Positions 1 through 64,000 of a stretch of DNA of 64,000 bases are shown one piece after another; the stretch's first letter is position 1; every line of letters begins with the position of its first letter. The position numbers were made by a program, and so were the translations under genes. The DNA is taken from the NCBI GenBank assembly GCA_965219085.1, contig OZ244720.1, positions 1,120,001-1,184,000 of the forward strand, given 5' to 3'. The notes under the pieces were generated by a model, which was not told the origin of the DNA, searched no databases, and was given only the letters and a program-made list of their open reading frames with translations. The DNA is from Dehalococcoidia bacterium. GTDB lineage: Bacteria; Chloroflexota; Dehalococcoidia; UBA2979.

Positions 1-1014
1 GTGGGCGTGACGCTGCGGCTCTACACCGAGGCCGACGACACCGCGCTGCGCTCGCGTCGCACTTGCTGCGGCGTCGAAGACGTCGCGGACGCGCGCGCCG
101 CCGCCCAGCGCATCGGCATCCCGCACTACGTGCTCAACATGGAGCGCGAGTTCGAGCGCGATGTGATCGACGTGTTCACGAGCGCCTACGCCGAGGGCCG
201 CACGCCCAACCCCTGCCTGGCCTGCAACGACCGCATCAAGTTCAGCACGCTCCTCGACCGCGCGAACGCGATGGGTATCGAGCAGCTCGCGACCGGGCAC
301 TACGCACGGATTCGCGAGCGCGACGGGCGGTGGACACTCCACGCCGCGGCCGACGACGCCAAGGACCAGTCGTACGTGCTGTACACGCTCAAGCAGGAGC
401 AACTCGCGCGGCTGCGCTTCCCCCTCGGCGACCTGCCGAAGCCGGAGACGCGCCGCGTGGCCGCCGAGCTCGGGCTCGGCGTCGCCGACAAGCCCGACAG
501 CGCCGACATCTGCTTCGTCCCCGGCGGCGACTACCGCGAGTTGCTGCGCGCGCGCGGCGTCACGTCACGCGCGGGGGCCATCATCGACGCGGACGGGGAG
601 GAGCTCGGCCGCCACGAGGGCGTCGCCGGCTTCACCGTCGGCCAGCGGCGCGGGCTCGGCATCGCGACGCCGGGACGCCGTTACGTCACGTCAATCGACG
701 CCGACGCGGGCGTGGTCACGGTCGGCAACGCCGACGACCTGCTCACGAGCAGCATCGAGGCCTCCGCGCCGAGCTGGGTCGGCGAGCCGCCGCAGCCCGG
801 CGAGCCGCTGCTCGCCCGCGCGCGGTACCACGGCGAGCCCGTGCCGGCGCGGATCGTCGACCGTTCCGGGGACGGCTTCCGCCTCGCCCTCGACCGCCCG
901 GTGCGGGCGGCCGCGCCGGGCCAGGCGGTCGTGCTCTACCGGCCGACGCCGGGCGACGGCGACGAGGTGGTGGGCGGGGGCGTGATCGAGCGAGGGGCGC
1001 GCGCGGCGCTCTGA
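1..1014 (+). CDS. mnmA: tRNA 2-thiouridine(34) synthase, 5'-truncated by window edge
   Basis: Motifs TPNPCLACN, ATGHYAR, KDQSYVL, KPDSADICF, FTVGQRRGLG, PGQAVVLY. Confidence 0.97.
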   Translation: MGVTLRLYTEADDTALRSRRTCCGVEDVADARAAAQRIGIPHYVLNMEREFERDVIDVFTSAYAEGRTPNPCLACNDRIKFSTLLDRANAMGIEQLATGHYARIRERDGRWTLHAAADDAKDQSYVLYTLKQEQLARLRFPLGDLPKPETRRVAAELGLGVADKPDSADICFVPGGDYRELLRARGVTSRAGAIIDADGEELGRHEGVAGFTVGQRRGLGIATPGRRYVTSIDADAGVVTVGNADDLLTSSIEASAPSWVGEPPQPGEPLLARARYHGEPVPARIVDRSGDGFRLALDRPVRAAAPGQAVVLYRPTPGDGDEVVGGGVIERGARAAL

Positions 1015-1027
1015 GCCCCTCGCGCGG

Positions 1028-1426
1028 TCACTGCCGCGCGTCGAGCGTGTCGAGGTCTCCGGGCCAGTCGAGTAGCCGGCGGTCCGCCGTCACCAGCAGG
1101 TGGCCATCGAGCGCGGTGGCGGTGATCACGCGGTCGGCAGGGTCGCCGTGCATGTCGGGGAGGGCGCCCGCGCGCGCGGCGATGACGGCATTCACCGGGA
1201 TCTCGACGAGCCCTTCGTCGATGAGCGTTGTGCGCCATGCGCCGACTTCGCGGCGCAGCGTGTATCGGCCCTTGTCCTGGAGCATCGCCAGTTCCCAGAA
1301 CGAGATGGCGGACACGGCGAGCTCGCCCTGCCGCCACGCCTGCTCGACCTGTGAGCGCGCGCTGCTGCCGAGCCGCAGGTCGCCGGACCGGCTCCACAAC
1401 AGGACGTGCGTATCGAGCAGGATCAT
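1028..1426 (-). CDS. vapC: PIN-domain toxin (VapC family)
   Basis: MILLDTHVLLW...SAISFWE...HGDPADRVITATA...LVTAD; ATG overlaps antitoxin stop (ATGA). Confidence 0.93.
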   Translation of the reverse strand: MILLDTHVLLWSRSGDLRLGSSARSQVEQAWRQGELAVSAISFWELAMLQDKGRYTLRREVGAWRTTLIDEGLVEIPVNAVIAARAGALPDMHGDPADRVITATALDGHLLVTADRRLLDWPGDLDTLDARQ

Positions 1427-1704
1427 GGATTGAGGACGCGGTCCGGGTTCGCCTCCGCCTCCCACGCGACATCGACGGGCTCGATGATGTCGCCGTGGAT
1501 CTCGATGATGTCCCGGTCGCGCCCGAACCACTGCTTCGGCCTGACACGGTAGGGGGTGAGCTTCGCGACCGGCCGGCCACGCTTCGTGATCACGATCTCC
1601 TCGCCGCTGTCGGCGACCTCATCCATGAGCTTCAGGCACTTCGCCTTGAACTCGGCCGCCTTCATCGTGCGGCTGACATCGTCCGAGGTGACCTCGCCGT
1701 CCAT
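1423..1704 (-). CDS. Phd/YefM family antitoxin (start may be 1665)
   Basis: MKAAEFKAKCLKLMDEVADSGEEIVITKRGRPVAKL; directly upstream of PIN toxin. Confidence 0.93.
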   Translation of the reverse strand: MDGEVTSDDVSRTMKAAEFKAKCLKLMDEVADSGEEIVITKRGRPVAKLTPYRVRPKQWFGRDRDIIEIHGDIIEPVDVAWEAEANPDRVLNP

Positions 1705-1725
1705 GCGGTGCTCCCGTCGTCCGTT

Positions 1726-1756
1726 CGTGACCAGTATCGTACGTCATATGGTCACG
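1726..1756. promoter_or_regulatory. Inverted repeat upstream of antitoxin, probable autoregulatory operator
   Basis: CGTGACCA-N15-TGGTCACG just upstream of the antitoxin start. Confidence 0.55.
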
Positions 1757-1994
1757 TTGCGCCGCTCACCCGTCGCGTCGCGCGGTCGCGTGATCGAGCG
1801 AGGGGCGCGCGCGGCGCACCGAGCCCCGGACTACCAACGCTGACTGTGGTTACATCGTGCGCACGTTGCGCATCGACACCTCCAGGATTCGTTGTCCGCC
1901 AATACGCGCGCGGCTACGATGACCGTGCGGGGTGCGGCACGGTCGTACCCCCGACATTGCGACTTACACGCGGAACGGCGAGGACGGCAGCACG

Positions 1995-2423: not shown

Positions 2424-2425
2424 GC

Positions 2426-3274: not shown

Positions 3275-6200
3275 ATGCAGCGCGAGCCCGCTGGCAGCGG
3301 CGTCGGCGACAGCGCGAAGCGGCGCGTGCGCGCTCGGCGCTCGGCGCTGCGCGTCGCGCTCGTCGTGGCGGGCTCGGCCGTGTTGGCTGCGCTCGTGTTC
3401 GCCGGACCGTTCGCGCCGGGCGGCGCCGGCTCGCTGTCCGCCGAGGTCTCCACCGGCTCGGTGGAGACGGATCGGTCCGCGCTGCTCGCCGTCTACGAGT
3501 CCGCGAACGGCCTCTACTGGCAGCGAGACGACCATTGGAACAGCGACGAGCCCCTCGATGCGTGGAGGGGCGTCACCACGGACGAGGACGGGCGCGTCAC
3601 GGCCCTCGAGCTCTCGTTCCTCGGCGACGTGAGCGGGACCCTCTCGCCAGCGCTGGGGAACCTCGACCGGCTGGAGAGCCTGACCGTGTCGTTCACGGAC
3701 CTGAGCGGACCGCTCCCAGCCGAGCTCGGGAACCTCACCGACCTGCAGACCCTGAACCTGTCGTTCAACGAGTTCAGCGGGCCGATCCCGCCGGAGCTGG
3801 GGAACCTCACCAACCTGCAGTCGCTCACGCTGGCCTACAACCAGCTCAGCGGACCGATCCCACCCGAGCTCGGGAACCTCACCAACCTCGAGTCGCTGAC
3901 GATCACGAGTCACCCGTCGAGCGCCCCGACCGACCGCGCCTCGCGCCGCCTCGGCGCCTTCCTGGGGCTGCGAGTAAGCGAGAACCGAGTCGGCGGACAG
4001 ATCCCGCCCGAACTGGGCAAGCTCAGCAGCCTGCAATCCCTCGAGCTGTCATCGAACGCGCTCAGCGGGCCGATCCCGCCCGAGCTCGGCAACCTGACCA
4101 ACCTGGCGTCCCTCTCGCTCGCGAACAACCAGTTGAGCGGACCGATCCCGCTGGAGCTGGGCAGGCTCGCCAACCTGCAGTCGCTGGGGCTGAACGAGAA
4201 CGAGCTCAGTGGCTCGATCCCGCCGGAGCTGGGGCAACTCGCCAGCCTGCAAGTGCTGGGCCTGAGCCGGAACGAGCTCAGTGGCTCGATCCCCCCGGAA
4301 CTGGGGCAACTCGCCGGCCTGCAGGGCATCGTCCTCGCCAACAACCAGTTGAGCGGCTCGATCCCACCCGAGCTGGGCGACCTCACGCACATGCGAGCGC
4401 TGGTCCTCTCCGATAACGAGTTGAGCGGCCCGATCCCGGCCGAGCTGGGCAACCTCGCCGGCCTCCAGTTCGTGCGCTTCGCCGGCAATCCAGGCTTGAG
4501 CGGATGCGTGCCCCGCACCCTGCGCCATCTCCTCACCCTCCCGACATTCTCCCTGGCAGGGCCCGGCCATGACTTCGTCGAGGTGGACGTGAACGGCGAC
4601 GGCGATACCGATGACGCGCTGGACGGCGACGTGCCCGGTCTGGGGCTGCCGTTCTGCATGCTGCGCGACCTGCAGCTCGGCGGCGCCACCCTCGACCCGC
4701 CCTTCGCCGCCGGCGCCCCGGCCTACACCGCCTCCGTGGACGGCTCCGTCGCGCACACGGCGGTGACCGCGACGCTCATCGACGGCCACGCCTACGTGCT
4801 GGTCCGCAAGGGCGGGCGGACCTACGCGAGCGGCGAGCCGGTGCCGCTCGACCCGGGCGTGAACGCCCTCAGCATCGAGGTCGCACCGCTGGACGCCACG
4901 CCCCGCCAGGTCTTCACCGTGGCGGTGACACGAGGAGCCGTCGTTCCGATCACGCTCGAGCTGCGCGATGGCAGCGACCTCGTGATCGCGCCCCCCGGCA
5001 CGGCCACCACGGCCGCGAGGCTCCTGGACGGGACCGACGTGCAGGTCGCGTGGAAGTACAACCGCGACACGCGTGCGTGGGACCGCTCGTACCTCCCGGC
5101 GATCGGCTTCGGGGGCTTCCCGATCGGGGCCGGCGACGCGCTCTGGGTCATCGCCGGCAGCGACCAGACGCTGACCGTCGAGGGAGCGCGACCTCCGGCC
5201 GGGGCACAGCCGCCCGGCCCCGTCACGCTCGCCGTGCGCGAGGGCAGCGACCTCCTCGTTGTACCCGCGGGCGCGCCCACGACAGCCGCCGCACTGTTTG
5301 GTGGGACCGACGTGCAGGTCGTGTGGAAGTACGACCGCGCTTCGCGGGCCTGGGACCTCTCCTACCTTCCCGGCCCGGGGTTCGGGGGCTTCGACATCGC
5401 GCCCGGCGATGGGCTCTGGGTGATCTCGCCGCGCGCCCAGACGCTCGGCGGGGCGCCCGCACCGGCGCCTGTCGAGCCGCGGATCGCGGACCCGGTGGCC
5501 GAGGTCAGTACGAGCGAGACCCATACTTGCGCGCTGCGCGAGTCGGGCGAGGTCCTCTGCTGGGGGGCGAACGACCAGGGTCAGACCGACGTGCCGCCGG
5601 AGCGGTACCGCGCCGTCGCCGCGGGTTCGGAGCACACGTGCGGCCTGCTCGAGTCGGGCGAGATCGTCTGCTGGGGGAGCGACCGCGGGGGCCCGTTGGA
5701 CGTGCCGGACGGAACGTACATCGCCGTCGGCGCCGGGTACGCGCGCACGTGCGCGCTTCGCGAGTCGGGCGAAGTCGCCTGCTGGGGATCGTACGGGAGC
5801 GCGCACCAGGACGTTCCATCGGGGACCTACCGCTCGCTGAGCGTGGGGTTCACGCACGCGTGTGCGCTCGGCGAGTCGGGCGAGGTGGTCTGCTGGGGCA
5901 GCAGCGCATTCGACCAGAGCGATGCACCGTCGGGGGTGTACAAGTCGGTGAGTGCGGGCCGAAGCCACACATGCGCGCTTCGGGAGTCGGGCCAGCTGGT
6001 GTGCTGGGGGCTGAACACGTCCGGGAACCGCATGCCCAACTTGTCCGGTACGTACCGCTCGGTCAGCGCGGGTGACGGGTTCACGTGCGGTGTGCGGGAA
6101 TCCGGGAAGGTCGTGTGCTGGGGGAACAACCACCGGGGGGTGACGGAGGTTCCCGACGGGCGCTACGTCTCCGTCAGCGCGGGCGAGCACCACGCGTGCG

Positions 6201-17396: not shown

Positions 17397-17608
17397 GCGG
17401 GGAGTCCTTCGGTCTCGACCCGGCTGCGCGCGGTCACGCCGCCGGTTCGACTCCCACCACTCGTGACATATCGTTCACGATGCGGCGCGTGCTTGCAACA
17501 CCCATCGTCGCGCCGAACGTACGCTTATCACGATTGTTTGGCTGTAATCCAACCATTGACCCGCTACACTGGCAGCGCACCCGCCCCCACCGACCGAGGG
17601 GAGCAGCG

Positions 17609-17890
17609 ATGGCCTTCGACACCGAGCGCGCAGCCCGCCGGCTCACGGACGCCGGCTTGGACGAACGTGCCGCGAACGGCGTGGCGGACGTTGTGGGCTC
17701 CGCTACCGACGGACTCGCCACCGAGGCGAGCCTCGAGTCCGGCTTGCACGCGCTCGAGACGAGCTTGCTGGAAGTCAAGTCCAGCATCGCGGCGCTCGAG
17801 GCGCGCATCTACCGCGCGCTGTGGCTGCAGGGCATGGGCATCCTCGCCGGCACCGCCGCGATCGTCACCATCATCAACGTGCTCAACTGA
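17609..17890 (+). CDS. DUF1640/CCDC90-like coiled-coil membrane protein, array A copy 1
   Basis: MAFDT head, LATE neck, coiled coil, C-terminal TM. Confidence 0.85.
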   Translation: MAFDTERAARRLTDAGLDERAANGVADVVGSATDGLATEASLESGLHALETSLLEVKSSIAALEARIYRALWLQGMGILAGTAAIVTIINVLN

Positions 17891-17923
17891 CGCACCCGCC
17901 CCCACCGACCGAGGGGAGCAGCG

Positions 17924-18238
17924 ATGGCCTTCGACACCGAGCGCGCAGCCCGCCGGCTCGCTGACGCCGGCTTGGACGAACGCGCCGCCAACGGCGTCGC
18001 CGACGTGGTGGCCAGCGCCACCGACGGACTCGCCACCGAGGCGAGCCTCGAGTCCGGCTTGCACGCGCTCGAGACGAGCTTGCTGGAAGTCAAGTCCAGC
18101 ATCGCGGCGCTCGAGGGCCGCATCGACGCCAGCATCGCGAAGCTTGAGGCGCGCTTCGCTCGCGCGCTGTGGCTGCAGGGCATGGGCATCCTCGCCGGCA
18201 CCGCCGCGATCGTCACCATCATCAACGTCCTCGACTGA
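17924..18238 (+). CDS. DUF1640/CCDC90-like protein, array A copy 2
   Basis: Near-identical to copy 1 plus one extra 11-aa unit. Confidence 0.85.
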   Translation: MAFDTERAARRLADAGLDERAANGVADVVASATDGLATEASLESGLHALETSLLEVKSSIAALEGRIDASIAKLEARFARALWLQGMGILAGTAAIVTIINVLD

Positions 18239-18270
18239 CGCACCCGCCCCCACGAGCGAGGGGAGCAGCG

Positions 18271-18552
18271 ATGGCCTTCGACACCGAGCGCGCAGCCCGC
18301 CGGCTCGCTGACGCCGGCTTGGACGAACGCGCCGCCAACGGCGTGGCGGACGTTGTGGGCTCCGCTACCGACGGACTCGCCACCGAGGCGAGCCTCGAGT
18401 CCGGCTTGCACGCGCTCGAGACGAGCTTGCTGGAAGTCAAGTCCAGCATCGCGGCGCTCGAGGCGCGCATCTACCGCGCGCTGTGGCTGCAGGGCATGGG
18501 CATCCTCGCCGGCACCGCCGCGATCGTCACCATCATCAACGTCCTCGACTGA
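18271..18552 (+). CDS. DUF1640/CCDC90-like protein, array A copy 3
   Basis: Near-identical to copy 1, same GAGGGGAGCAGCG leader. Confidence 0.85.
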   Translation: MAFDTERAARRLADAGLDERAANGVADVVGSATDGLATEASLESGLHALETSLLEVKSSIAALEARIYRALWLQGMGILAGTAAIVTIINVLD

Positions 18553-18584
18553 CGCACCCGCCCCCACGAGCGAGGGGAGCAGCG

Positions 18585-19070: not shown

Positions 19071-19075
19071 GCACG

Positions 19076-19363
19076 ATGGCCTTCGACACCGAGCGCGCAG
19101 CCCGCCGGCTCACGGACGCCGGCATGGACGAACGCGCCGCCAACGGCGTCGCCGACGTGGTGCGCAGCGCCACCGACGGACTCGCGACCGAGGCGAGCCT
19201 ACTGGAACTCACGGCCAGCATCGCCGCGCTCGAGGGCCGTATCGAGGCCAACATCGCGAAGCTTGAGGCGCGCATGATCAAGTGGACCGTCGGCGCGATC
19301 CTCGCCGGCATGGGCGCGTCGGCCGCCATCGCCGCGGCCATCGCGCAGCTCGCCGGCGGGTGA
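19076..19363 (+). CDS. DUF1640/CCDC90-like protein, array A copy 5
   Basis: Same head, short stalk, MIKWTVG tail. Confidence 0.85.
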   Translation: MAFDTERAARRLTDAGMDERAANGVADVVRSATDGLATEASLLELTASIAALEGRIEANIAKLEARMIKWTVGAILAGMGASAAIAAAIAQLAGG

Positions 19364-30417: not shown

Positions 30418-30446
30418 GCCCGTCGCGCCGGCGCGAGGCAGTCTGC

Positions 30447-42543: not shown

Positions 42544-42660
42544 GCCTTACGCCTCGATGCGCGACGGCCACCAGTTCCAGCGCGGGATCCGAGGACACCA
42601 GTGCCCTCGACTGCCGGACCGACTCAGGCCTTCCGGTGTGTCCACTCTCAAGGCCGGAAC

Positions 42661-42996
42661 CTAGCCTGTCTCGGGGTGCTCCTCATCCAGTGCTGCGATA
42701 CCCGTCAGTGCGATCGGCGGCCGGTCGGGGAATTCGGCCACCAGGCTGAGCTTCCCGCCCATCGCGCCGACGTAGCTGCTCAGCGTGGAGAGCAGCAGAT
42801 CGCTGCGCTGCTCGATACGCGAGACGTTTTCCTGATTGATTCCCAGCTTCGCGGCAACGCTCGCCTGCGTCTGCTCCCGTGCCTTGCGCAGGTCGCGAAG
42901 CGACATCTCTTCGGCGATGAGGTCCCGGGCGCGTTCCTCGATCCGCTGCCGACGCGACGGCGAGAGTCCGTCCAATCGCTCATCGAGGGTCGACAT
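42661..42996 (-). CDS. XRE-family HTH antitoxin (HigA-like)
   Basis: LRDLRKAREQTQASVAAKLGINQENVSRIEQRSDLLLSTL. Confidence 0.92.
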   Translation of the reverse strand: MSTLDERLDGLSPSRRQRIEERARDLIAEEMSLRDLRKAREQTQASVAAKLGINQENVSRIEQRSDLLLSTLSSYVGAMGGKLSLVAEFPDRPPIALTGIAALDEEHPETG

Positions 42997-42998
42997 GC

Positions 42999-43373
42999 CT
43001 ACCTCCTCACGCCGGGTAACTGGTCGAGATGCTCATCGAATCGTGCATCCGCCCTGCTGACCAGCCGGCTGTAGAAGCGACGCTCGTTCATGCCGCTCTT
43101 GTCGCCAGCCGCCAGCAGGATGGCACGCTGGCGAGGGTCGAACGCGAAGGCGACGCGCCAGACGCCTTGCGCTGCGCGAAAGCGAAGCTCCTTCATGTTG
43201 GCGTGGCGGGATCCGTTCAGCGTATCGACACGCGGGCGACCCAATGTCGGCCCGAACGTCTCAAGGAGCCTCGCCTGTGCAAGCAACTCATCCTGCACCG
43301 CGGTCGGCAGATCGTCGAATTCAGGGTCGAAGGCCCCGTGGAACTCGACTCCCCAAGCCAACGGAGACATCAT
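42999..43373 (-). CDS. RelE/ParE-superfamily toxin (HigB/Gp49-like); real start may be TTG 43361
   Basis: GPTLGRPRVDTLNGSRHANMKELRF...WRVAFAFDP..AILL..GDK; toxin-first gene order. Confidence 0.92.
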   Translation of the reverse strand: MMSPLAWGVEFHGAFDPEFDDLPTAVQDELLAQARLLETFGPTLGRPRVDTLNGSRHANMKELRFRAAQGVWRVAFAFDPRQRAILLAAGDKSGMNERRFYSRLVSRADARFDEHLDQLPGVRR

Positions 43374-43405
43374 GACTTGTCAGTCATATGCTGTCAAGAG
43401 CATAT
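43369..43405 (-). promoter_or_regulatory. Sigma70-like promoter with overlapping operator
   Basis: TTGACA-17 bp-CATGAT on the minus strand; palindrome ATATGCT-N6-AGCATAT surrounds the -35. Confidence 0.7.
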
Positions 43406-43416
43406 CTGCCTCGCCC

Positions 43417-45624
43417 TCACGCCCCGATCCGCGACGGCCACCAGTTCCAGCGCCCGAACATCGCCACGAGCGACGGCACGATCAACGTGCGCGTGATGAA
43501 GGTGTCCATCAGCACGCCGGCCGCCACCGCGAAGCCGAGCTGTAGCAGGTCCTGCAGCGGCAGCGTCATCAGCGCCGAAAACGTCCCGGCGAGGATGAGG
43601 CCGGCCGAGGTGATCACGGGGCCGGTGCGCGCGAGTGCGTACCGGGTCGCCTCGGCCAGCGGCGCCTCGCGCGCCTCCTCGCGGATGCGCGACATCAGGT
43701 AGATGTTGTAGTCGACGCTCAGCGCGTTGAGGAACACGAAGAGGAAGAATGGGACGCCCTGTCCCACTCCCGATTGACCCAGCACGACGACGAAGACCAC
43801 GACGGCGAGGCCGAGCGTCGCGAAGTACGTGAACGCGATCGTCGCCATCAGGTACAGCGGCACGATCAGCGAGCGCAGCAGCAGCGCCAGCACCACCCCG
43901 ATCGCGAGCAGGATCAGCGGCAGCACGACCCGCGAGTCGCGGTTGCCGGCCACCTTCGTGTCAAACGCCTCCGCGGTCTCGCCGCCGATGAGCACGCCGG
44001 CCGGGTCCAGCCCGGCCGCGGCCACGCTCGCGCGCGCAAGCTCGCGCAGCTCGGGGACGGCGTCGAGCGCCTCCGGCGCGTACGGGCTCACCCCGAGCAC
44101 GACGTCGATGCGCGCCTCGTCCCCGTCCTCGGAGACAAAGCCCGCCCGGGCTGCCTCGGCGGCAGGCCCGCTCGCGGACCCCGCCTCGATGCCGAAGGGA
44201 CGGCTGGGACCGGCGGCGCCGGCGACGAGGGGGTGTTCGGTCAGCGCGAGCGTGACCGCGTCGAGCTTCCCGAGCGCACCCTCGTCGAGGGCCTGTTCGC
44301 CGGGCGCGAGCGAGACGAAGACCCGCGTGCGCGCGAGTTCGCCGCCCGGGAAGCCCGTGCGCAGCAGCTCGAAGCTGCGCACCGACTCGGTGTTGTCGGG
44401 CAGGCTCTCGAGCCGGTCGTAGGTCGGCTGGTAGGCGAAGAGGCCGGCGATGAGCAGGGCAAGCACCGCGCTCGTCGCGGCGAGCACGGCGCGCGGCCGG
44501 CGCAGCACCACGCCGCCGATGCGGCCGTAGATGCTCTGGCGCCAGTCGGCGGGGGCGTCGGGCCCCTCGGCGAGGCGCGGCTGCACCGGCCAGAAGACGC
44601 GCCGCCCGATGATCGTCAGCACCGCCGGGATGAGCGTGAGCGCGGCGAGCATCATCAGCGCCACCGCCAGCGCGATGACCGGCCCGAGCGTCTGGTAGGA
44701 GCGCAGCACCGCGAACCACAATGCCGCGGACGCGACGAGGATCGTCGCGCCGGCCGAGGCGACGGCGCCGCCGACGCCGCGCATGGTGCGTCGCATCGCC
44801 TCGTGGCGGTCGGCGTTGCGGGTGAGCTCCTCGCGGAAGCGCGCCGAGACGAAGAGCACGTAGTCCGTCCCGGTGCCGAACAGCACGACGGTCATGATGC
44901 CCGTCGCCTGGCCGGAGATGGGCAGGTCGAACTGCTGCGCGATCCAGGCGGCGATGCCGCCGGCGAGCTGGAAGACGAGCCCCACCCCGAGCAGCGGGAT
45001 CGTGGCCATGATCGGCGATCGGTAGATGGCGATCAGCAGCGCGAGCACCAGCGCCACGGTGACGAGCAGCAGGAACGTGTCGATCTGCCGGAACACCCCG
45101 ACGATATCGACCACGAGCCCGCCCGGCCCGCCCACGGCGACCTCGACGCCGGGCAGGTCGAGCGCCGCCGTGCGTTCGCGGATCGCGTTCACCGTGTCCG
45201 CGAACGGGTCCTCGGCGGGCTCGCCCGAGAGCTCGACGAAGATGTAGAGGGTGGTGCGGTCGGGCGAGATGAGGCCGGGAATGGCGCCCGGCGCGCGCAC
45301 ATCGGTGATGTTGTGCGGCGCGTCGGGGCCCGTCATCCAGGCGACGAGGTCGTCGACCGCCGCGAGCGTGGGTGCGCCGAGTCCGGCGAGCTCGCGGAAG
45401 ACGATCAGCGTGGGCGTGCCCCGTGCCGGGAACTCGTCGCGGGCGAGCTCGTAGGCGAGGGTCGACTCGGCGTCACCGGGGAGGAACAGTGCCTCCTCGT
45501 TCTCGCGCACCTCGTCGAGGCGCGGGAGCTGCGAGAGCAGCACGCCGGCGGCAAGCACCCAGACGAGCAGCGTGACCCACTTGCCGCGTGGGCTGCTGAC
45601 GAAGTCGGTGACGACGCCCAGCAC
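43417..45624 (-). CDS. MMPL family (RND superfamily) transporter
   Basis: GTGTDYVLFVSARFREE and SVDYNIYLMSRIREE; two membrane halves. Confidence 0.94.
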   Translation of the reverse strand: MLGVVTDFVSSPRGKWVTLLVWVLAAGVLLSQLPRLDEVRENEEALFLPGDAESTLAYELARDEFPARGTPTLIVFRELAGLGAPTLAAVDDLVAWMTGPDAPHNITDVRAPGAIPGLISPDRTTLYIFVELSGEPAEDPFADTVNAIRERTAALDLPGVEVAVGGPGGLVVDIVGVFRQIDTFLLLVTVALVLALLIAIYRSPIMATIPLLGVGLVFQLAGGIAAWIAQQFDLPISGQATGIMTVVLFGTGTDYVLFVSARFREELTRNADRHEAMRRTMRGVGGAVASAGATILVASAALWFAVLRSYQTLGPVIALAVALMMLAALTLIPAVLTIIGRRVFWPVQPRLAEGPDAPADWRQSIYGRIGGVVLRRPRAVLAATSAVLALLIAGLFAYQPTYDRLESLPDNTESVRSFELLRTGFPGGELARTRVFVSLAPGEQALDEGALGKLDAVTLALTEHPLVAGAAGPSRPFGIEAGSASGPAAEAARAGFVSEDGDEARIDVVLGVSPYAPEALDAVPELRELARASVAAAGLDPAGVLIGGETAEAFDTKVAGNRDSRVVLPLILLAIGVVLALLLRSLIVPLYLMATIAFTYFATLGLAVVVFVVVLGQSGVGQGVPFFLFVFLNALSVDYNIYLMSRIREEAREAPLAEATRYALARTGPVITSAGLILAGTFSALMTLPLQDLLQLGFAVAAGVLMDTFITRTLIVPSLVAMFGRWNWWPSRIGA

Positions 45625-46418: not shown

Positions 46419-47042
46419 GTGGAGCCGCAGGAACGATTCCCGATCAGCCTCGGGGAGGCGATCTTCTCGCTGCGCGCCATCCGCCGCGTCAAGCCCGACC
46501 CCATCCCCGAGGAGGACCTGCGCGACATCCTCACCGCGGCCATCCAGGCGCCCAACGGAGGCAACGCCCAGCCCTGGCACTTCCTCGTCGTGCGCGACCC
46601 GGAGCTGCGCGCGCGCCTCGGCGCCCTCTACCACGAGGCGTGGTGGGCGAAGCGCGCCGACGAGGGCATCGGCGGCCCCGAGGACCTCCACCCCGCCAAC
46701 CAGGTGTCCGCCTCGGCGATGCGCCTCGCCGACGAGTTCGGCGAGGCGCCGGCCATCGTGCTGGTGTGCGCGATGGCGCAGGGGGCCGGGGCAATGGGCT
46801 CGGTCATCCCGTCGGTCGAAAACCTGCTCCTCGCCGCGCGAGGGCTCGGCGTAGGCGGCACGATCACGACGCTGCACGCCTCGGTCGACGAGCGCGTGAA
46901 GGCGCTGCTCGACATCCCGGCGGAGGTGCAGATCGTCTACGCGGTGCGGCTCGGCTACCCGCGGGGCCGCTTCGGGCCGGTCACCCGCAAGCCGCTGAAC
47001 GAGGTGACCTCGGGGGACCGCTGGGGCGATCCGCTCGCGTAG
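46419..47042 (+). CDS. Nitroreductase family protein
   Basis: RAIRR...AAIQAPNGGNAQPWHFLVV, NLLLAARGLGVG, LGYP. Confidence 0.93.
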   Translation: MEPQERFPISLGEAIFSLRAIRRVKPDPIPEEDLRDILTAAIQAPNGGNAQPWHFLVVRDPELRARLGALYHEAWWAKRADEGIGGPEDLHPANQVSASAMRLADEFGEAPAIVLVCAMAQGAGAMGSVIPSVENLLLAARGLGVGGTITTLHASVDERVKALLDIPAEVQIVYAVRLGYPRGRFGPVTRKPLNEVTSGDRWGDPLA

Positions 47043-49408
47043 CGAGCGAAACCGGCATGTCGACCCTTTGAGGCGCGGCGAGCCCGCGAGGGGCGCGCGA
47101 TCTCCGAACCCGGACCGCGCCGCATTCGCAGGGGCGCGGGTGCAAGGGCTAGTTAGTCGAGGCGTACCATCGGTGAGCGTTGCTGCTCAATCGCAGAACG
47201 GACAAGCCACCCTTGACGGATACGAGCTATCGTGGCACATGAGAAAGACAGAGCATCGCGAGAAGGGAACGGCCGTGCCGACGTACACGATTGATGACTT
47301 CTGGCGGCGGCGCCTCAAGAGTCGTGTTGAATACCCATCTGACAGATCGCCGGTAGCTGGGTGGTCCACCCAGACCGACGGGTTACCAACCTTCCAGGAG
47401 GCCCCCTTTCGCCGAGCGAAGAATTCGCTGATGACGCCGACCCGGAAAACAGCTCTATACTACTCGTCTCCGCCCCTGGTGCCGTTGGGAAGTCCACTCT
47501 CGCCCGCGAGATCGCGCATGCTACGGGCTCGATCTATATTGACCTTGCCGAGGCGGCACCGGTTGGCGCTCAAACCTTGACTGGTGGCCTCGCTAGATCA
47601 GGCCTTTTCGAAGCTTGGGAATCGGAGTCAGTCGCCGCACTGATTGATGGCTTAGATGAGGCCCGCCTGAAGGTAACCCACGAGGCCTTTCGGTCATTCC
47701 TCTCGGATATTGCGGAGCTCTCAGTTAGTCGGACGATACCAACGGTACTCTTCGGCAGAACGCGTGCGATCCAAGATGCGTGGCTTGAGCTAGCAGAAAG
47801 CGACATTGATGTGAGCATCTCGGTGCTGGAGATCGGCTATTTCGATCCGCAGTCATCTCTTGCTCTTGCCGTAAACAAACTGAATCCTAGCAGCCAGCAC
47901 ACGAGCGTGCAGACTGAGGTCATGGAGGTCATACTACAAACCCTAAGAAGGGAGACCAGTAGTGACGGCGATCGCTTTGCTGGATATGCGCCAGTAATCG
48001 AAGCCGTCGCTGCGCACGTCAACGATGAGGATAACCCTGGAGCGCTGCTTGCTAGAGTACGGCAGGGGGATCAACCCGTGTCGATGCAAGCCATTGTGTC
48101 AGCAATTCTGGACAGAGATCACCGTAAGTTACGCGCCATTGAGTTCAAGGATAAAACGTTATCCGAGAGGCTGTACACTCCAGATGAGCAACTCGACCGC
48201 CTCGTCTCGGAGGCATACGGGGCTCCGCCTCCGGAAATGCCGGACATGGATCCGGAGGATGCTCAGAGGTATGAGGGCCTATTGGAGGAGTGGGTAAATG
48301 ATCACCCATTCCGCGATGCCTCAGCAACAGTATTTGACGCTGTAATTTCCACCAGAGGGTTGCAAAGCACTGCGGCGAGTGGTGCAGCGCTGAATAGGGA
48401 ACTAGGCAGGTCAGTAGCAAACCCGTTTCTGTCGGAGTTCTACGCGCTGGGATCCGACCTAATTCAGCCTGAGCATGTAGGTGTCTTCTATGCGTCGGTG
48501 AGAGCTAGGCTCGCGCTCGGAGACTCTGCCAGTCTATACCTAGGAACGGACGAGGAGTCGCGCTCGCTCACGGAGATGGAGATAACCATCACACGGCGAG
48601 ATACCAGTGAGCCTCGAATATTGAGACTGCAGACTGAGGAATCTGGCACGATCATTTTGGGCAGTCAAGTCGAAGATATTCACCTAGCTGTGCCTTGGGC
48701 GAGGGTTACGATCGGCGCAGAGCCAGAGGCCACCTTAGTTGCGCCAGTTATTATTCAGTGCAATGAGCTCTTCATGCCAGCGCCTAAACTAATCATAGAG
48801 GCCCCCGATGGTCGCCATGATAACGCGGTTCTTCTAGAGGCACAAGAATACCTTGGTCGGACGTCGCAAGTGCCCGTTATTCGAGGAGATGTCAGCTTAT
48901 CCGCCTCTTGGCCAGGAGTCGCTACGTATCCTTGGACTGCGTTCGCCATCAACCCGACGAGCGCGGGCGATGAAGATCCGGAACTCGATGAAGCCCTGAG
49001 GCGATTCCGTAATTTCGTGATTCAATTCCGGTCTAACAGGTACGGGGGACTGGCTCGGTACCAAGGGACGATCGACAATACTAGGATGACTAAGGGGCCT
49101 GGGCGAGCCGTTCTGCGCCACATGGAGGAAACGGGGATACTGACTCGCCAGCAGCCAATGTATTTCTTAGACCCCCAACGCTTGTCTGAATTGACTGGTA
49201 CATCCTACGCTGATTGTATGGCTCGTAGATTCGGCGAGAAGGCTGTTTCATTCGTCAGGGAGGCAATGTCGAGCGGCTAGGATTCGAGCCGGTGCAAATC
49301 GTCTACGCGGTGCGGCTCGGCTACCCGCGGGGCCGCTTCGGGCCGGTCACCCGCAAGCCGCTGAACGAGGTGACCTCGGGGGACCGCTGGGGCAGCCCGC
49401 TCGCGTAG
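46925..49408. repeat. 118-bp direct repeat (46925-47042 and 49291-49408) duplicating the nitroreductase 3' end
   Basis: 114/118 identical; both copies end in TAG. Confidence 0.96.
47275..49280 (+). CDS. Lower-GC P-loop NTPase; probable start GTG 47275 with a frameshift near 47405, open frame from 47361
   Basis: Walker A SAPGAVGKST, Walker B ALIDGLDE; visibly AT-richer than flanks. Confidence 0.8.
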
Positions 49409-59208: not shown

Positions 59209-59288
59209 CCTCATCTTCGTCGCGGCCACCGACCGGTGTGACCTGTATGGTAGAAGCGGTGAGTGTCGTTCTACCTGAAGGAACCTCA

Positions 59289-59546
59289 GTGGCGCTGAAC
59301 ATCAAGAACGAAGAGACCTGCAAGCTCGCCCGCGAGTTGGCCGAGCTGACCGGCGAGACGATGACCGGCGCCATCACGGTCGCACTCCGCGAGCGACTCG
59401 AGCGCGAGCGGCGTGAGCGTAGCGTCGAGGCCCGCAAACAGGAGCTGCTGGCCATCGGCCGGCGGGCTGCGCGCCTGCTTGGGGATGGGCCGTCCGCAGT
59501 CGACCACGGAGACCTGCTATACGACGAGCACGGCCTCCCGAAGTGA
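59289..59546 (+). CDS. vapB: VapB antitoxin (Rv0623-like), copy 1
   Basis: LNIKNEETCKLARELAELTGETMTGAI...LYDEHGLPK. Confidence 0.9.
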   Translation: MALNIKNEETCKLARELAELTGETMTGAITVALRERLERERRERSVEARKQELLAIGRRAARLLGDGPSAVDHGDLLYDEHGLPK

Positions 59547-59619
59547 TCGTAGACGCGCCGGCGGTGCGGGCGCTGTATGGTAGACACTGCGATCCCGATT
59601 CTACCTCGAAGGATGTCCG

Positions 59620-59877
59620 GTGAGCCTGAACATCAAGAACGAAGAGACCTGCAACCTCGCCCGCGAGTTGGCGGAGCTGACCGGCGAGACGATGACGGGC
59701 GCGATCACCATCGCACTCCGCGAGCGACTCGAGCGCGAGCAGCGTCAGCGTAGCGTCGAGGCCCGCAAACAGGAGCTGATGGCCATCGGCCGGCGGGTTG
59801 CGCGCAACCTGCGCCCGGGCCCGTCGGCCGTCGAGCACGGCGACTGGTTATACGATGAGCACGGGCTGCCGAAGTGA
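59620..59877 (+). CDS. vapB: VapB antitoxin (Rv0623-like), copy 2
   Basis: Near-identical paralog; stop overlaps vapC start (GTGA). Confidence 0.92.
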   Translation: MSLNIKNEETCNLARELAELTGETMTGAITIALRERLEREQRQRSVEARKQELMAIGRRVARNLRPGPSAVEHGDWLYDEHGLPK

Positions 59878-60078: not shown

Positions 60079-61371
60079 CAGGGTGCTGAAAAAGGCGCGG
60101 CCATCTGGCAGGATAGCGAAGGCGGCGGGGGCGTAGCCTGGGAGGCAGCCCCGTGCGAGGCGACGCCGAGCGCCAGACCAACATGTTGCTGGCGGTGACG
60201 CCGGACTCCTTCATCCCGGACGACCACCCGATCCGACGCATCAAGCCGATCGTCGATGCAGCGCTGCAGCGGCTCTCGCCGCTCTTCGGCACGATGTACG
60301 CAACGAGCGGGCGGCCCTCGATCCCGCCCGAGCACCTGCTCAAGGCGAGCCTGCTGATCGCGCTCTACTCGATCCGCAGCGAGCGCCAGTTCTGCGAGCG
60401 GCTGCGCTACGACCTGCTCTTCAAGTGGTTCTTGGACCTCAACATCTCAGACGCGCCGTTCGACGCCTCGAGCTTCTCGAAGAACCGCGAGCGCCTGCTC
60501 GCAGCCGATGTCGCGCGCGCCTTCTTCGCCGAGGTGGTGGCCGAGGCAAAGCGCCGCCGGCTGCTCTCCGCCGAGCACTTCACCGTGGACGGGACGCTGC
60601 TGGAGGCCTGGGCCTCGCTCAAGAGCTACCGCCCGCGCGACGGGCAGGAGCCACCCCCGGGCGGACGCAACCCGGACGTGGACTTCCGCGGGCGGCGGCG
60701 CAGCCGCGATACGCATAGCTCCGGCACCGACCCGCAGGCGCAGCTGTACACAAAGGGAGCGGGGCAGACGGCGAAACTGAGCTACATGGGCCATCTGCTC
60801 ACCGAGAACCGTCACGGCCTGGTGCTGGACGTGGAGTTGACCGAGGCGAACGGGTACGCCGAGCGCGAGGCCGCGGTCACGATGCTGGAGCGCAGCGTGA
60901 GCGGCTGCGGGACGCTGGGCGCCGACCGCGGCTACGACACGCGCGACTTCGTGGCGGAACTGCGCGCGCGCGGCGTGACGCCGCACGTGGCGCAAAACGA
61001 CCGCGGCCGCCGCAGCGCCGTGGACGGGCGCACCACGCGGCATCGCGGCTACAGGCAGAGTCAGCAGCGGCGCAAGATCGTGGAGCAGGTCTTCGGCTGG
61101 ATGAAGACCGTGGGCGGCGGGCGCAAGCTGCGTTTCGTGGGCCGCGAGCGCAACCGCGGCTGGCTGGAGCTCACCGCCGCCGCCTACAACCTCGTGCGCA
61201 TGGCCAGGCTCGAACTCGCCCCTGCGTAGGCGCAGTGCGCCCTCCGGCCGGTCCGGGAGCCCTCAGAGGCCCCCGGGGGCAGGTCAGGAGGCCACCATCA
61301 CGAAGCCGGAGGCGGCTTCAAGCCGCCTCTCGCCACTCCGAGACCCCGGAAGGCGCTTCTTCAGCACCCTG
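60079..61371 (+). mobile_element. IS5-family (DUF772-type) element
   Basis: IRs CAGGGTGCTGAA / TTCAGCACCCTG; TTAG duplicated at 60075 and 61372. Confidence 0.95.
60153..61229 (+). CDS. IS5-family transposase
   Basis: GRPSIPPE, YSIRSERQ, HFTVDGTL, LGADRGYD, RKIVEQVFGWMK. Confidence 0.95.
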   Translation: MRGDAERQTNMLLAVTPDSFIPDDHPIRRIKPIVDAALQRLSPLFGTMYATSGRPSIPPEHLLKASLLIALYSIRSERQFCERLRYDLLFKWFLDLNISDAPFDASSFSKNRERLLAADVARAFFAEVVAEAKRRRLLSAEHFTVDGTLLEAWASLKSYRPRDGQEPPPGGRNPDVDFRGRRRSRDTHSSGTDPQAQLYTKGAGQTAKLSYMGHLLTENRHGLVLDVELTEANGYAEREAAVTMLERSVSGCGTLGADRGYDTRDFVAELRARGVTPHVAQNDRGRRSAVDGRTTRHRGYRQSQQRRKIVEQVFGWMKTVGGGRKLRFVGRERNRGWLELTAAAYNLVRMARLELAPA

Positions 61372-61592
61372 TTAGAGCCCGTCACGGCGGACCATGCGCA
61401 GCGCGCACGCCGCGCGTGGCGGCGGTTCGGGAAGGGCAACCACCCGGCGGGGCTGAACTTCGGTGACTGCTTCGCCTACGCGCTCGCCGAGGCCGCGCGT
61501 GAGCCGCTGCTGTTCAAGGGCGAGGACTTCGCGCTCACCGACATCGACGCGGCCTGAAACCTCATCCCGCCACGCCGCGAGGAGCGCACCAG

Positions 61593-62471
61593 ATGCCCGA
61601 CGCCCGCGCTCGCCACGTCGTGCTGACCGGGGCGACCTCGGGCATCGGCCTCGCGGCGGCGCGAGGTCTCGCCGCCGCGGGCGCGCGCCTCACGCTCGTC
61701 GGGCGCGACGAGGCGCGGCTGGCCGCGCTCGCCTTGGAGCTCGGGGGCGGCCCGGAGTCGGGTGGCGCGGACTGGGTCGCCGCCGACCTCGCGAGCCTCG
61801 CGCAGACGCGGGCCGCGGCGGCCGAGATCCGCGAGCGTCACGACCGCGTCGACGTGCTCATCAACAACGCCGGCGGCATGTTCCGCCACCGTGAGGAGAC
61901 CGCCGAGGGCATCGAGTTGACGCTCGCGCTCAACCACCTCTCGCCGTTCGTGCTCACCTCGGAGCTGCTGCCGCTGCTCCGCGCCGCGGCGGACGCCGAC
62001 CGCGGCTTCGGGGCGCGCATCGTCAACGTCGCGTCGAGCGCGCACCGCTCCGGCGTGCGCTGGGACGATATCCAGTGCGAGCGCGACTACTCGCTGATAC
62101 GCGCGTACGGGCAGAGCAAGGCGCTGATGGTGATGACCACCATCGAGCTGGCCCGACGCCTCGAGGGGTCAGGCGTCGCCGCGAACAGCATGCACCCGGG
62201 CGTCGTGCGCACCGGCATCGTGCAAAAGTCGGGCCACGGGATCGTCGGCACGCTGATCGTGCTCGGCGGGTACATCGTGCTCGCCACGCCGAGACGCGGC
62301 GCGTCGCACCTCGTGCGGCTCGCGCTCTCGGACGAGGTGGCGGGCGTGACCGGTACCTACTGGAACAAACGCCGCGTCGAGGAGCCGTCCGAGGAGGCTC
62401 GCGATCGCGGGAACCAGGAGCGGGCGTGGCGGCTGTCGGAGCAACTCGCCGGGATGACGGCGACCGCCTGA
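61593..62471 (+). CDS. Short-chain dehydrogenase/reductase (retinol dehydrogenase-like)
   Basis: TGATSGIG, NNAG, YGQSK, HPGVVRT. Confidence 0.95.
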   Translation: MPDARARHVVLTGATSGIGLAAARGLAAAGARLTLVGRDEARLAALALELGGGPESGGADWVAADLASLAQTRAAAAEIRERHDRVDVLINNAGGMFRHREETAEGIELTLALNHLSPFVLTSELLPLLRAAADADRGFGARIVNVASSAHRSGVRWDDIQCERDYSLIRAYGQSKALMVMTTIELARRLEGSGVAANSMHPGVVRTGIVQKSGHGIVGTLIVLGGYIVLATPRRGASHLVRLALSDEVAGVTGTYWNKRRVEEPSEEARDRGNQERAWRLSEQLAGMTATA

Positions 62472-62481
62472 GCCCTCGGCG

Positions 62482-62840
62482 CTACACCTCTTCGCTGCCT
62501 CCCGGCCGAACTCGTACTCGCCTCCGCGTCACGACGGCTGTCTTCGCGCATCGCCTCGGAGTACTCGTCAATGAGATGACGCATGGCAGTGACCTTCTCG
62601 GCGACTGACATCTCGGTGAAGCGAATGATGCACGGGTGCGGCAGCCGGCGTACGAAGACAAGCTCGCCAAGTCCTTGTCTTCGGTGATCAGTATCCGATG
62701 CTCTCCGAAAGCCATCCCAGGCAACTCGTCGTAGTAGCCCGAGGCGCCCCGTCCAACGCTGACAGCACATCATGGCCCAGGCCCGCGAGGGTGCCGTGCA
62801 TGCGGCGAGACGCAGCACACGCGTCGAGGAGAAACCTCAA
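62482..62840 (-). pseudogene. DUF5615 PIN-like toxin, multiply frameshifted
   Basis: Fragments in three frames: RFLLDAC..LGHDV / RILITEDKD / GELVFVRRLPHPCIIRF / AVVTRRRVRVR. Confidence 0.8.
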
Positions 62841-63090
62841 GACTCGCGGACGGGCACGAGCTCTGCACTCGCTCACCGGCGATGGAGCGGTGAGCGAAGA
62901 TCAGGCACGCCTGGATGTCTTCCGGCTCCAGCGCCGGGTACTCGCGGAGGATGGTCTCGGCGGAGTCTCCAGCCGCCAGCATCCCCAACACATGCTCCGC
63001 GGCGATGCGCATGTCGCGGATGATCGGCTTCCCGCCGAGCACGCCCGCGCGAACCGTGATGCGATCCAGAAGCTCGGGTTGAGATGTCAC
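62770..63090 (-). CDS. DUF433 antitoxin; the natural stop near 62837 appears lost to a 1-bp frameshift
   Basis: RITVRAGVLGGKPIIRDMRI...ILREYPALEPEDIQACL. Confidence 0.88.
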   Translation of the reverse strand: MTSQPELLDRITVRAGVLGGKPIIRDMRIAAEHVLGMLAAGDSAETILREYPALEPEDIQACLIFAHRSIAGERVQSSCPSASLEVSPRRVCCVSPHARHPRGPGP

Positions 63091-63150
63091 TGGCGTCCCC
63101 CTGTTCCGGACTCCCCCTCGTTCTCGCGGAGCCCGCCTGAGGCCTCGGCG

Positions 63151-64000
63151 CTACGCCGCCACGTCCTCCGCCGCGCGCGCCGGCATCGGCGCGAACGCCG
63201 CGATGACCGTCGCGATCGCGGCGATGCAGCCCGAGTAGACCACGACGCCGTGGAAGTCCCACTGCGTGTTGATGGCCCCGGCGACCACGGGCGAGATCGC
63301 GCCGACGATCGCACCGCCCGTGAACAGCATCGCCACCGCCGAGCCCTCGCTGCCCCCGGCCACCGACTCCATCGCCGCCGCCATCATGATCGAGTTGACC
63401 GAGAAGAGCACGATGCCGAGCAGCGCGAGCGCGACCGTCAGCCCCACCCCGCGATCGACCCACAGGAACGCGAAGAGCAGCAGCGTCATCGTGATCAGCC
63501 CGAACATGATCACCGGCCGCCGCCCGATGCGGTCTGAGACCGCCCCCATCACCGGCCCGGCGAGGATGCCGAGCAGCGTCAGCAGCCCGAGGTGGAACCC
63601 CACGGCCACGTCGGAGTAGCCGAGGTCCTCGTTCATGTAGAGCACGAGGAACGTCGCGAAGGAGAGGTGCGCCATCCCGCGCAGCGCCGTCACCGCGACC
63701 AGCGCGAGCACCGTCGTGTTGCGGAACAGCGGGCGCGCCGTGGCGAGGTACTCGCGCAGCTGCAGGCTCATCTGCCCCGCGCTCTCCGCGGACTTGAAAC
63801 GCATGAGGATGACGACCCCGGTCAGGATCGCCGGGCCGACGTGCAAAAGCGCGACCGTGCGCCAGTCGAAGCCGCCCCACTGCAAGCCGGCGAAGCTCAC
63901 GCCGCCGAGCAGCACGCCGATCACGAATGGCGCCGAGGAGTCGCCGATCGACCCGCCGGAGCGGTGCGCGGCGATCGCGAACGCGCGGCGCTCCGGGTAG
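63151..64000 (-). CDS. MFS transporter, 5' end beyond the window
   Basis: GAVSDRIGRRPV motif; multiple TM helices; frame open to the edge. Confidence 0.9.
   Translation of the reverse strand, partial: YPERRAFAIAAHRSGGSIGDSSAPFVIGVLLGGVSFAGLQWGGFDWRTVALLHVGPAILTGVVILMRFKSAESAGQMSLQLREYLATARPLFRNTTVLALVAVTALRGMAHLSFATFLVLYMNEDLGYSDVAVGFHLGLLTLLGILAGPVMGAVSDRIGRRPVIMFGLITMTLLLFAFLWVDRGVGLTVALALLGIVLFSVNSIMMAAAMESVAGGSEGSAVAMLFTGGAIVGAISPVVAGAINTQWDFHGVVVYSGCIAAIATVIAAFAPMPARAAEDVAA

Follow-up and report, generated by a model that had tools for sequence, protein, structure and literature searches.

We analysed a window of 64,000 nucleotides (G000:C1:1120001-1184000) from the genome of a Dehalococcoidia bacterium, here called G000, which is a single contig of 3.31 Mb with 69.8% GC. 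The window carries four small cassettes, R1 to R4, each lying between direct repeats that copy the end of an adjacent core gene, and 21 loci of this kind were accepted in the genome as a whole. With moderate confidence, we interpret these cassettes as "insertions with long target duplication" that arose by one-sided homologous recombination with an alternative allele of the site, completed by one illegitimate joint; the duplication was most likely not made by an element-encoded enzyme. A preliminary description of the window had read R1 to R4 as products of a general process, independent of an integrase, by which small cassettes are added to the ends of genes. The 21 loci bear this out, and the interpretation is supported in substance; it has clear precedent, and its mechanism is read from the products.

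Cassettes between copies of gene ends

Comparison of the window with itself by blastn, from which the repeats were located, recovered all four pairs where the preliminary description had placed them (Table 1), and all four are real and not chance matches. R1 (38/40 identical, E = 2e-10) and R3 (114/118, E = 4e-52) were found as described. The R2 pair is equally real, and only its reported identity of 36/39 had to be corrected: the blastn core (42549-42583 and 43419-43453) matches at 33/35 positions (E = 2e-7), or at 34/37 with the stop codons included. R4 spans the stop codons of two convergent genes, SDR and MFS, and matches at 21/22 positions with a blast E value of 0.05; in 0 of 100 shuffles did any match appear at two or fewer mismatches. 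The repeats thus overlap the ends of the adjacent genes as had been claimed, the mnmA, MMPL, nitroreductase and SDR/MFS stops all lying within copies.

Table 1. Positions in the window of the four repeat pairs with their inserts, and of the transposase genes
Feature	Position	Strand	Content
R1 in-gene copy	980..1019	+	last 11 mnmA codons, stop 1012-1014, 5 nt; mnmA domains PF03054, PF20259, PF20258
R1 insert	1020..1787	-	VapC (PIN, 8.8e-12) 1028-1426; Phd antitoxin (PhdYeFM, 1.6e-9) 1423-1704
R1 distal copy	1788..1827	+	mnmA tail without stop (reads on ...AAHRAPDYQR*); then native downstream sequence as in the empty G003 site
R2 distal copy	42547..42583	-	MMPL tail with its own stop TAA; adjoins the convergent fn3/cadherin gene stop (42541-42543)
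R2 insert	42584..43416	-	Gp49/HigB-like toxin 43011-43373 (Gp49, 2.7e-20); HTH antitoxin 42661-42996
R2 in-gene copy	43417..43453	-	MMPL 3' end, stop TGA (43417-43419); MMPL 1.3e-119
R3 in-gene copy	46925..47042	+	last 118 nt of the nitroreductase gene, through stop 47040-47042
R3 insert	47043..49290	+	2248 bp; one 639-aa P-loop protein 47361-49280, no curated family
R3 distal copy	49291..49408	+	nitroreductase tail; then native downstream sequence common to G016, G008, G003 and G014
R4 copy 1	62464..62485	+	SDR stop 62469-62471 and copy of the MFS stop region
R4 insert	62486..63132	-	DUF433 62770-63090 (1.1e-21) and frameshifted DUF5615 remnant
R4 copy 2	63133..63154	+	copy of the SDR stop region and working MFS stop 63151-63153 (minus strand)
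IS3-type transposase gene ("rve")	30139-31268		DDE transposase
DDE_Tnp_1 gene	32754-33728		DDE transposase
DDE_Tnp_1 gene	60153-61229		DDE transposase

The upstream region of about 85 bp of the Phd/VapC pair in R1 contains a palindrome. In R2, all HTH family matches of the antitoxin fall below the Pfam cut-offs. The R3 protein has a Walker A motif and a sub-threshold Pfam match to AAA_16, and its insert has a GC content of 54-56% as against about 70% for the genome. R4 had been described as a DUF433-DUF5615 cassette. The DUF433 half was matched; no open reading frame (ORF) of the insert matches DUF5615 in the Pfam scan, and the corresponding part differs by single-base gaps from the intact DUF433/DUF5615 pairs of relatives G015 and G004, indicating that the DUF5615 partner has decayed.

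We searched the whole genome for the same structure by a chunked self-blast of G000 with spacings of 300-12000 bp, which gave 1232 direct and 85 inverted matches. An isolation filter (no other match within 1.5 kb) left 71 direct and 26 inverted pairs; R2 was lost at this step through neighbouring repeats, and R4 through the E-value cut. Three of the 71 direct pairs lie inside the window, namely R1, R3 and a tandem pair of antitoxin genes. The latter (59238-59877) consists of two Rv0623-like (PSK_trans_fac) antitoxin-type genes that are 94% identical over 180 nt at a spacing of 331 bp. Forty others (L013-L052) were vetted by ORFs, Pfam matches and flank comparison, and the remaining 28, outside the vetting, were for the most part either 19-23-mers separated by over 3 kb or long duplications of paralogues. 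Seventeen of the vetted pairs were accepted, three (L029, L038 and L048) were set aside as holding insertion sequence (IS) genes, and 20 were rejected as tandem paralogues, within-gene repeats or chance-level short matches (L013, L016-L018, L020, L022, L023, L026, L027, L030-L033, L037, L041, L047 and L049-L052). Among isolated pairs scoring at least 44 bits, direct orientation prevailed at spacings of 300-3000 bp (40 direct versus 4 inverted), and inverted orientation at 3-12 kb (1 direct versus 7 inverted).

Together with R1 to R4, this makes 21 accepted loci in 3.3 Mb. Their repeats measure 22-173 bp (median 55, any microhomology at a joint being absorbed into the repeat as aligned) and exceed 30 bp at 18 loci, falling short at R4 (22), L046 (27) and L035 (exactly 30). 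The inserts are 416-2248 bp long (median 818), and every one has a GC content below that of the genome (0.56-0.68). The preliminary description had placed the cassettes at gene 3' ends. By our reading of the ORFs this holds for 11 of the 21 (mnmA, MMPL, nitroreductase, SDR/MFS, glnA, DUF885, thioredoxin-like, GAF, nuoB, a 100-aa ORF and secF); the process is not confined to them, since nine loci duplicate a 5' head or the sequence just upstream (pheS, crcB, two hsdR, MmeI-like, McrB-like ATPase, UvrD-like, aspS and deoxyribosyltransferase). One locus is intergenic.

Eight of the 21 inserts carry toxin-antitoxin genes (two PIN, one paralogue of a PIN cassette recognised by DNA similarity only, Gp49/HTH, HicA, two DUF433/DUF5615 and MNT/HepT), four carry nuclease- or NTPase-like genes (the P-loop protein, Exo_endo_phos, NYN and DUF3800), and nine have no family at all. 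PADLOC and NCBIfam, run on 21 insert proteins, named the NYN protein alone. Pfam scans of insert ORFs found no transposase or recombinase at these loci, and no insert holds a restriction-modification R and M gene pair. Two inserts adjoin the 5' end of type I hsdR genes: a DUF433/DUF5615 pair just upstream of hsdR between 173-bp copies of its 5' head (L019, G000:C1:873473-876889), and an MNT/HepT pair just upstream of another hsdR between head copies of about 102 bp (L045, G000:C1:3081175-3084460).

The pattern is confirmed as both genome-wide and genus-wide. In a 400-kb sample of the complete relative G014, which contained 12 isolated direct pairs, five of the eight pairs examined had the same structure, at ends of a tRNA synthetase gene, recG, GAF, GSDH and ydcZ, with three PIN genes, one T5orf172 gene and one PaREP1/GIY-YIG-like pair as cargo. 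In 200 kb of G020, from another genus, all three candidate pairs lay inside single ORFs. In 200 kb of G038, of the same class and with 48.6% GC, two direct pairs of 35-36 bp (L196, 8912-9470; L197, 11580-12049) flank small ORFs of low GC (38-39%) and may represent the same phenomenon outside the genus.

Alleles in related genomes and the origin of the repeats

Eight loci (R1-R4, L028, L034, L039 and L045) were compared with the 18 other genomes of the genus, a site being called empty when the stretches aligned to its two flanks share a segment as long as one repeat copy. The empty, single-copy alleles called for by the preliminary description were found at six of the eight loci: R1 in G003; R2 in G018; R3 in G007; R4 in G018, G014, G016 and G008; L028 in G016, G018 and G007; and L039 in G008, G007, G001, G010, G012 and G011. 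L034 and L045 show other cassettes or the same structure. At R1-R4 and L028, the orphan copy (the one separated from its gene by the insert) runs into the sequence that trails the single copy in the empty-site relatives.

Several sites are filled differently from genome to genome. The R1 site of G018 holds a DUF2442/DUF4160 cassette, the L034 site holds NYN in G018 and DUF3800 in G014, and the L039 site of G016, G014 and G018 holds 1.0-1.8 kb of other sequence. At the R4 site of G007, histidine-kinase-like ATPase and DUF4325 genes lie between 105-bp repeats of the SDR tail that are 98% identical. Cassettes accompanied by their repeat are also present outside G000: L045 in G013, and L034 in G016, where the repeat (158 bp, 97.5%) is orthologous to that of G000, since shortened by about 50 bp. 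Orphan hsdR heads are conserved in G013, G015, G010 and G018. In G015 (L075, G015:C4:2341500-2346000) and G004 (L076), VapBC and DUF433/DUF5615 cassettes are stacked upstream of mnmA, where three repeat pairs of 34, 30 and 63 bp interleave and one pair extends into rsfS.

The same cassettes also occur without an orphan copy, R1 in G016, G014 and G007, L034 in G008 and G003, and L028 in G012, G017, G013 and G011. At these three loci the gene-side junction in G000 is the same as in the repeat-less carriers and the other junction is novel. For R1, this common junction consists of the mnmA stop, 13 nt and the VapC stop, and in its last codon the orphan copy is like the empty allele of G003. At R2, the copies differ from each other at species-variable sites, the orphan being G018-like and the in-gene copy G014-like.

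The most informative allele is the DUF885 locus (L034) of G016. Positions 1-1373, which take in the flank, NYN and the initial 158 bp of the DUF885 tail, are collinear with G018, which has only the NYN gene at the equivalent site. G016 then switches to the allele type of G008 and G003, with 19 bp of left flank, 39 bp, VapBC and the DUF885 gene. This locus visibly consists of two hotspot alleles spliced by one novel joint 158 bp inside the gene, which gives rise to the 158-bp repeat. The same logic fits the cassettes of the window, R1 and R2 among them, given an empty recipient site. The preliminary description had offered Campbell-type integration of small circles and homology-anchored entry with an illegitimate second joint as candidate mechanisms. 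G016, made of two alleles and one joint, favours the second, and we infer the remainder of the mechanism from such products.

We propose that gene boundaries in this genus may act as hotspots at which strains carry nothing or different cassettes. DNA from a cassette-bearing strain would enter a strain whose site is empty or differently filled, and would pair through the adjoining core gene by ordinary homologous recombination, on one side only because the donor fragment ends within or just past the cassette. An illegitimate joint would then connect the other end of the fragment with the recipient, some tens of bases within the paired region; alternatively, the fragment might be circularised first and integrated by a single crossover. 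By either route, the product would read gene, donor tail, cassette, recipient tail and native flank, so that the copy in the host gene would keep the gene whole and the orphan copy would run on into the native neighbouring sequence. Toxin-antitoxin and defence cargo could be over-represented among the survivors because loss of the cassette by recombination between the repeats would be selected against. Hence DNA uptake, a one-sided crossover, a joining step and selection would all have to take part, and G000 encodes ComEC, Ku and two LigD Prim-Pol genes, making uptake and end joining at least possible. For a single crossover that depends on RecA, a repeat of 22-40 bp is short, which speaks against the circle route and suggests that the linear, one-sided route fits better.

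Several observations weigh against this proposal. The cassettes of R3 and L039 were found in G000 only among the 19 genomes of the genus, with no repeat-less donor allele for either, and no relative of the R3 protein turned up in a metagenome scan. Both copies of R3 and both copies of L028 are of G000's own lineage type, as would also be expected from plain target duplication. The L034 repeat is common to G000 and G016 through one ancestral event, so that repeats can be of old date, in which case gene conversion or a later event is needed to account for the 97.5% identity in G016. Sliding identity along mnmA with its cassette and along the MMPL-nitroreductase region shows no imported tract; at R1, the first 80 bp or so past the mnmA stop are 90% like G016, and the rest of the cassette 65-76%. 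No circle, excision product or uptake event was observed. With donors missing, copies of the same type, repeats that can be old and no imported tract, true target duplication stays a serious rival.

According to that rival, which we consider unlikely on balance, the long duplication was made at the primary insertion itself: two nicks or breaks, separated by 20-170 bp and situated on opposite strands or on two copies of the chromosome, would be filled in and joined by Ku/LigD to a captured foreign fragment, with no homology needed on the incoming DNA. The geometry matches exactly, and the required Ku and LigD are encoded in the genome. R3 and L039 hold foreign cassettes unique to G000 in the genus, and both R3 copies are of G000 type; the copies at L042 (39/39) and L044 (31/31) are identical; and three unrelated sites carry homologous DUF433/DUF5615 cassettes, each with a repeat of its own. 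At all 21 loci, native downstream sequence is absent from the far end of the cassette, and no second small duplication (at least 4 bp) of that sequence was found around the orphan copy. However, target duplication would require the cut in G016 to coincide exactly with the stop-codon junction that the repeat-less G008/G003 allele already has, and leaves to be explained why the same cassettes occur without an orphan copy at three of the eight compared loci and why a divergence of 2-15% separates repeat copies even at inserts for which the population is still polymorphic. To our knowledge, the naturally competent species with such insertions lack Ku. The known insertions are mostly in naturally competent species (Furuta et al., PMC2853133).

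True target duplication would be the more novel reading when set beside one-sided recombination. We regard as rather improbable its strongest form, in which a dedicated and as yet unrecognised host pathway makes long duplications at primary insertion, for example by Ku/LigD capture of short fragments at staggered breaks that arise preferentially at gene boundaries. If it were true, the toxin-antitoxin and defence cassettes described here would form a class of recombinase-free mobile units, and the pathway would also account for the long target duplications seen with restriction-modification systems, which have had no explanation for 25 years.

Less probable still is an order of events in which a short tandem duplication of the gene boundary came first and cassettes then entered one copy or both, each independently and at the same junction. 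This has been proposed as an alternative for similar rRNA operon structures (PMC3457768), would make G016 a duplicated T-x unit whose two copies hold VapBC and NYN respectively, and is in line with the interleaved repeats at the multi-cassette loci of G015 and G004. Yet it needs three events where one suffices, and no empty tandem duplication of a gene boundary was noticed in a scan whose minimum spacing of 300 bp would miss them.

Recombinases, raw reads and other features of the window

The window, said by the preliminary description to lack an integrase, indeed holds neither a tyrosine nor a serine recombinase gene. It does contain three DDE transposase genes (Table 1), none of them inside or next to a cassette. 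In the rest of G000, where trans-acting enzymes had been suggested as a possibility, PF00589 has two matches only, XerD (above the curated cut-off) and an XerC-like protein, and there are eight serine recombinase genes, all outside the window. The claim that the repeats have no obvious sequence in common holds for all 21, which share only matches of 11-13 nt, at chance level. Apart from paralogues of 66-80% identity, the cassettes are single-copy in G000.

The DUF433/DUF5615 cassettes are instructive here. They are found at three unrelated sites, in G000 at the SDR/MFS junction and at the hsdR head, and in G015 and G004 upstream of mnmA, each time between repeats of local sequence; similarity between them stops with the operon and the ends are not conserved, which excludes a site-specific element or a transposon with defined ends. 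We found neither an adjacent tyrosine or serine recombinase nor a common attachment (att) core at the cassettes. Nor do they look like a DNA transposon or a non-autonomous derivative, with terminal inverted repeats, a short target duplication of fixed length and several copies: they are single-copy, their ends are not conserved and the duplications range from 22 to 173 bp. An integron integrase is absent, the PF00589 matches being Xer-type; attC structure was not searched for.

Decayed integrative islands or trans-mobilised elements, whose repeats would be att sites of lost or distant recombinases such as the eight serine enzymes, are very improbable as a source of the cassettes. Besides those eight genes, it can be said for them that integrases often target and regenerate gene 3' ends and that cis-mobilizable elements (CIMEs) are known to have att sites and no integrase. 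But the 21 repeat pairs have no common sequence and range from 22 to 173 bp, the cassette ends are not conserved, the tyrosine recombinases are only of Xer type, and serine recombinases leave a crossover identity of only 2 bp. Moreover, the integrase-bearing islands that the preliminary description had named as grounds for dropping its interpretation were not seen in relatives at any of the eight sites examined, where only empty sites or other small cassettes, and never a recombinase gene, were found.

The structures were also checked against raw reads, using Logan contigs built by another assembler from 31-mers for runs of two other studies. One raw-read contig covers each R2 junction (42415-43207 and 43179-43705). 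At R3, contigs begin within copy 1, cross the insert and reach into copy 2 (46998-49327), with breaks only at 31-mers identical between the two copies, and thus fit the R3 structure. The depth of the R3 insert is below that of its flanks in all four runs (2.7 versus 12-17 in run X8), which hints that part of the population lacks the insert; contig depths are summed over organisms and give a hint only of polymorphism. No excision or circle junction was listed among the raw-read contigs, and at R3 contigs of 31-mers cannot show one. An X8 contig joining 42488 to 43413, and so skipping 924 positions, was considered as the empty R2 site of a co-occurring relative and rejected as too weak, its shorter side being 25 letters. 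That strain alleles were concatenated during construction of a metagenome-assembled genome is scarcely credible: the layout of orphan copy and native flank does resemble two alleles in series, and the lower R3 insert depth points to a mixed population, but raw-read contigs of two studies cross the R2 junctions and carry the R3 insert, independent assemblies of G016, G007, G013, G014, G015 and G004 have the same type of structure, and the L034 repeat is orthologous in G000 and G016.

Other features of the window and its surroundings were noted. The first 880 bp or so of locus L161 (window positions of about 60500-61380, overlapping the transposase gene at 60153-61229) recur at 99-100% identity at no fewer than five other places in G000 and at 91-94% identity in G012, G017, G004, G013 and G015, so that this IS is active across the genus. 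Further along the same locus, past the window end (L161 3985-4904, G000:C1:1184484-1185403), an AF2212-like/PIN cassette lies between the MFS start and the L021 repeat. It is 92% identical to its counterparts in G004 and G013, whose core genes are only about 78-86% identical to those of G000, and this excess over core identity suggests recent interspecies transfer. Very large surface-type proteins are encoded at 3275-7726, 11328-15524, 39775-42543 and 49526-55912, including a 1483-aa protein with leucine-rich repeats (LRR) and 12 RCC1 repeats, cadherin/Big_9 proteins and a bacterial alpha-2-macroglobulin of 2128 aa. The C-terminal 700 bp or so of the fn3/cadherin gene recurs with 68-80% identity at 12 or more loci in G000 and relatives. 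Finally, the region 17576-19351 consists of four or five units of about 315 bp, 91-97% identical and with internal 33-bp repeats, which encode small coiled-coil/membrane proteins without family.

Comparison with known systems

How toxin-antitoxin and small defence genes spread without mobile-element machinery is an old open question, and insertion with long target duplication, reportedly described for restriction-modification systems by Nobusato et al. in 2000, has been known since then without a mechanism. This genus offers dozens of natural examples in close, often complete genomes, with sites that are empty, filled, differently filled and doubly filled; the allele series, and at least one locus with both parental alleles side by side, make the mechanism testable. 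Our results suggest that core-gene-end recombination with a sloppy second joint is a routine way of stacking cassettes at hotspots. For annotation, orphan copies of gene ends beside small cassettes are a usable marker of recent gene flow.

The direct repeats of integrase-mediated islands likewise copy the end of the target gene, which is thereby regenerated. Unlike such islands and their integrase-less derivatives, the inserts described here are only 0.4-2.2 kb long, have no recombinase, common core or conserved ends, and use 5' ends as often as 3' ends.

The closest precedent is the study of Furuta, Abe and Kobayashi (2010, PMC2853133), which describes types I-IV restriction-modification systems inserted without mobility genes between long, variable target repeats, which often span a start or stop codon and have an empty site in a related genome. 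The features used there for recognition, namely repeat length and variability, an empty relative site, no mobility gene and an insert below 20 kb, are present in our loci, apart from the three repeats of 30 bp or less, and with empty relative sites at six of the eight loci compared. The likeness extends to inserts of a few kb, repeats above 30 bp and of the order of 100 bp, an intact target gene, addictive cargo and a single-copy empty site. The cargo differs, consisting here of type II toxin-antitoxin and defence-like single genes, not restriction-modification systems. That article leaves the mechanism open and suggests that double-strand breakage by restriction enzymes is involved; given the cargo seen here, restriction cleavage cannot be the general mechanism. 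Density is far higher here as well, with 21 cases in one 3.3-Mb genome against nine among the 760 restriction-modification locus pairs in Table 1 of that article, and the cross-species series described here, unlike that work, points to allele-to-allele recombination as the source of the repeats. A full-text literature search, judged largely from titles and abstracts, returned no report of toxin-antitoxin cassettes inserted with long target duplication, although the supplements of PMC2853133 may hold cargo other than restriction-modification systems.

Homology-facilitated illegitimate recombination, reportedly described by de Vries and Wackernagel (2002) and Prudhomme et al. (2002), resembles the process proposed here in that homology anchors one side, whereas the joint at the opposite side is non-homologous. 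In a screen for such events in E. coli, as Amarir-Bouhram et al. (2011, PMC3240628) report, 56 of 60 recombinants had a duplication of the homologous segment flanking the foreign DNA; 14 sequenced duplications measured 109-950 bp and were attributed to a single crossover of re-circularised DNA. Unlike these laboratory events on engineered substrates, ours are natural products at many loci and have shorter repeats (22-173 bp).

Homology-facilitated illegitimate recombination has also been proposed by Kirchberger et al. (2017, PMC5361080) for the 3' ends of Rhs genes and for orphan immunity arrays of type VI secretion systems (T6SS). As in C-terminal displacement in Rhs and contact-dependent inhibition (CDI) loci, a module would enter through a conserved upstream part and push the resident 3' part downstream, with arrays formed by repetition. 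The displaced tail there is a variable toxin domain of one dedicated gene family, whereas here the end of any housekeeping gene serves (mnmA, glnA, nuoB, pheS, aspS, secF) and what is displaced is a nearly identical copy of that end. Events of this kind are known; the cargo, the frequency and the allele series described here are new.

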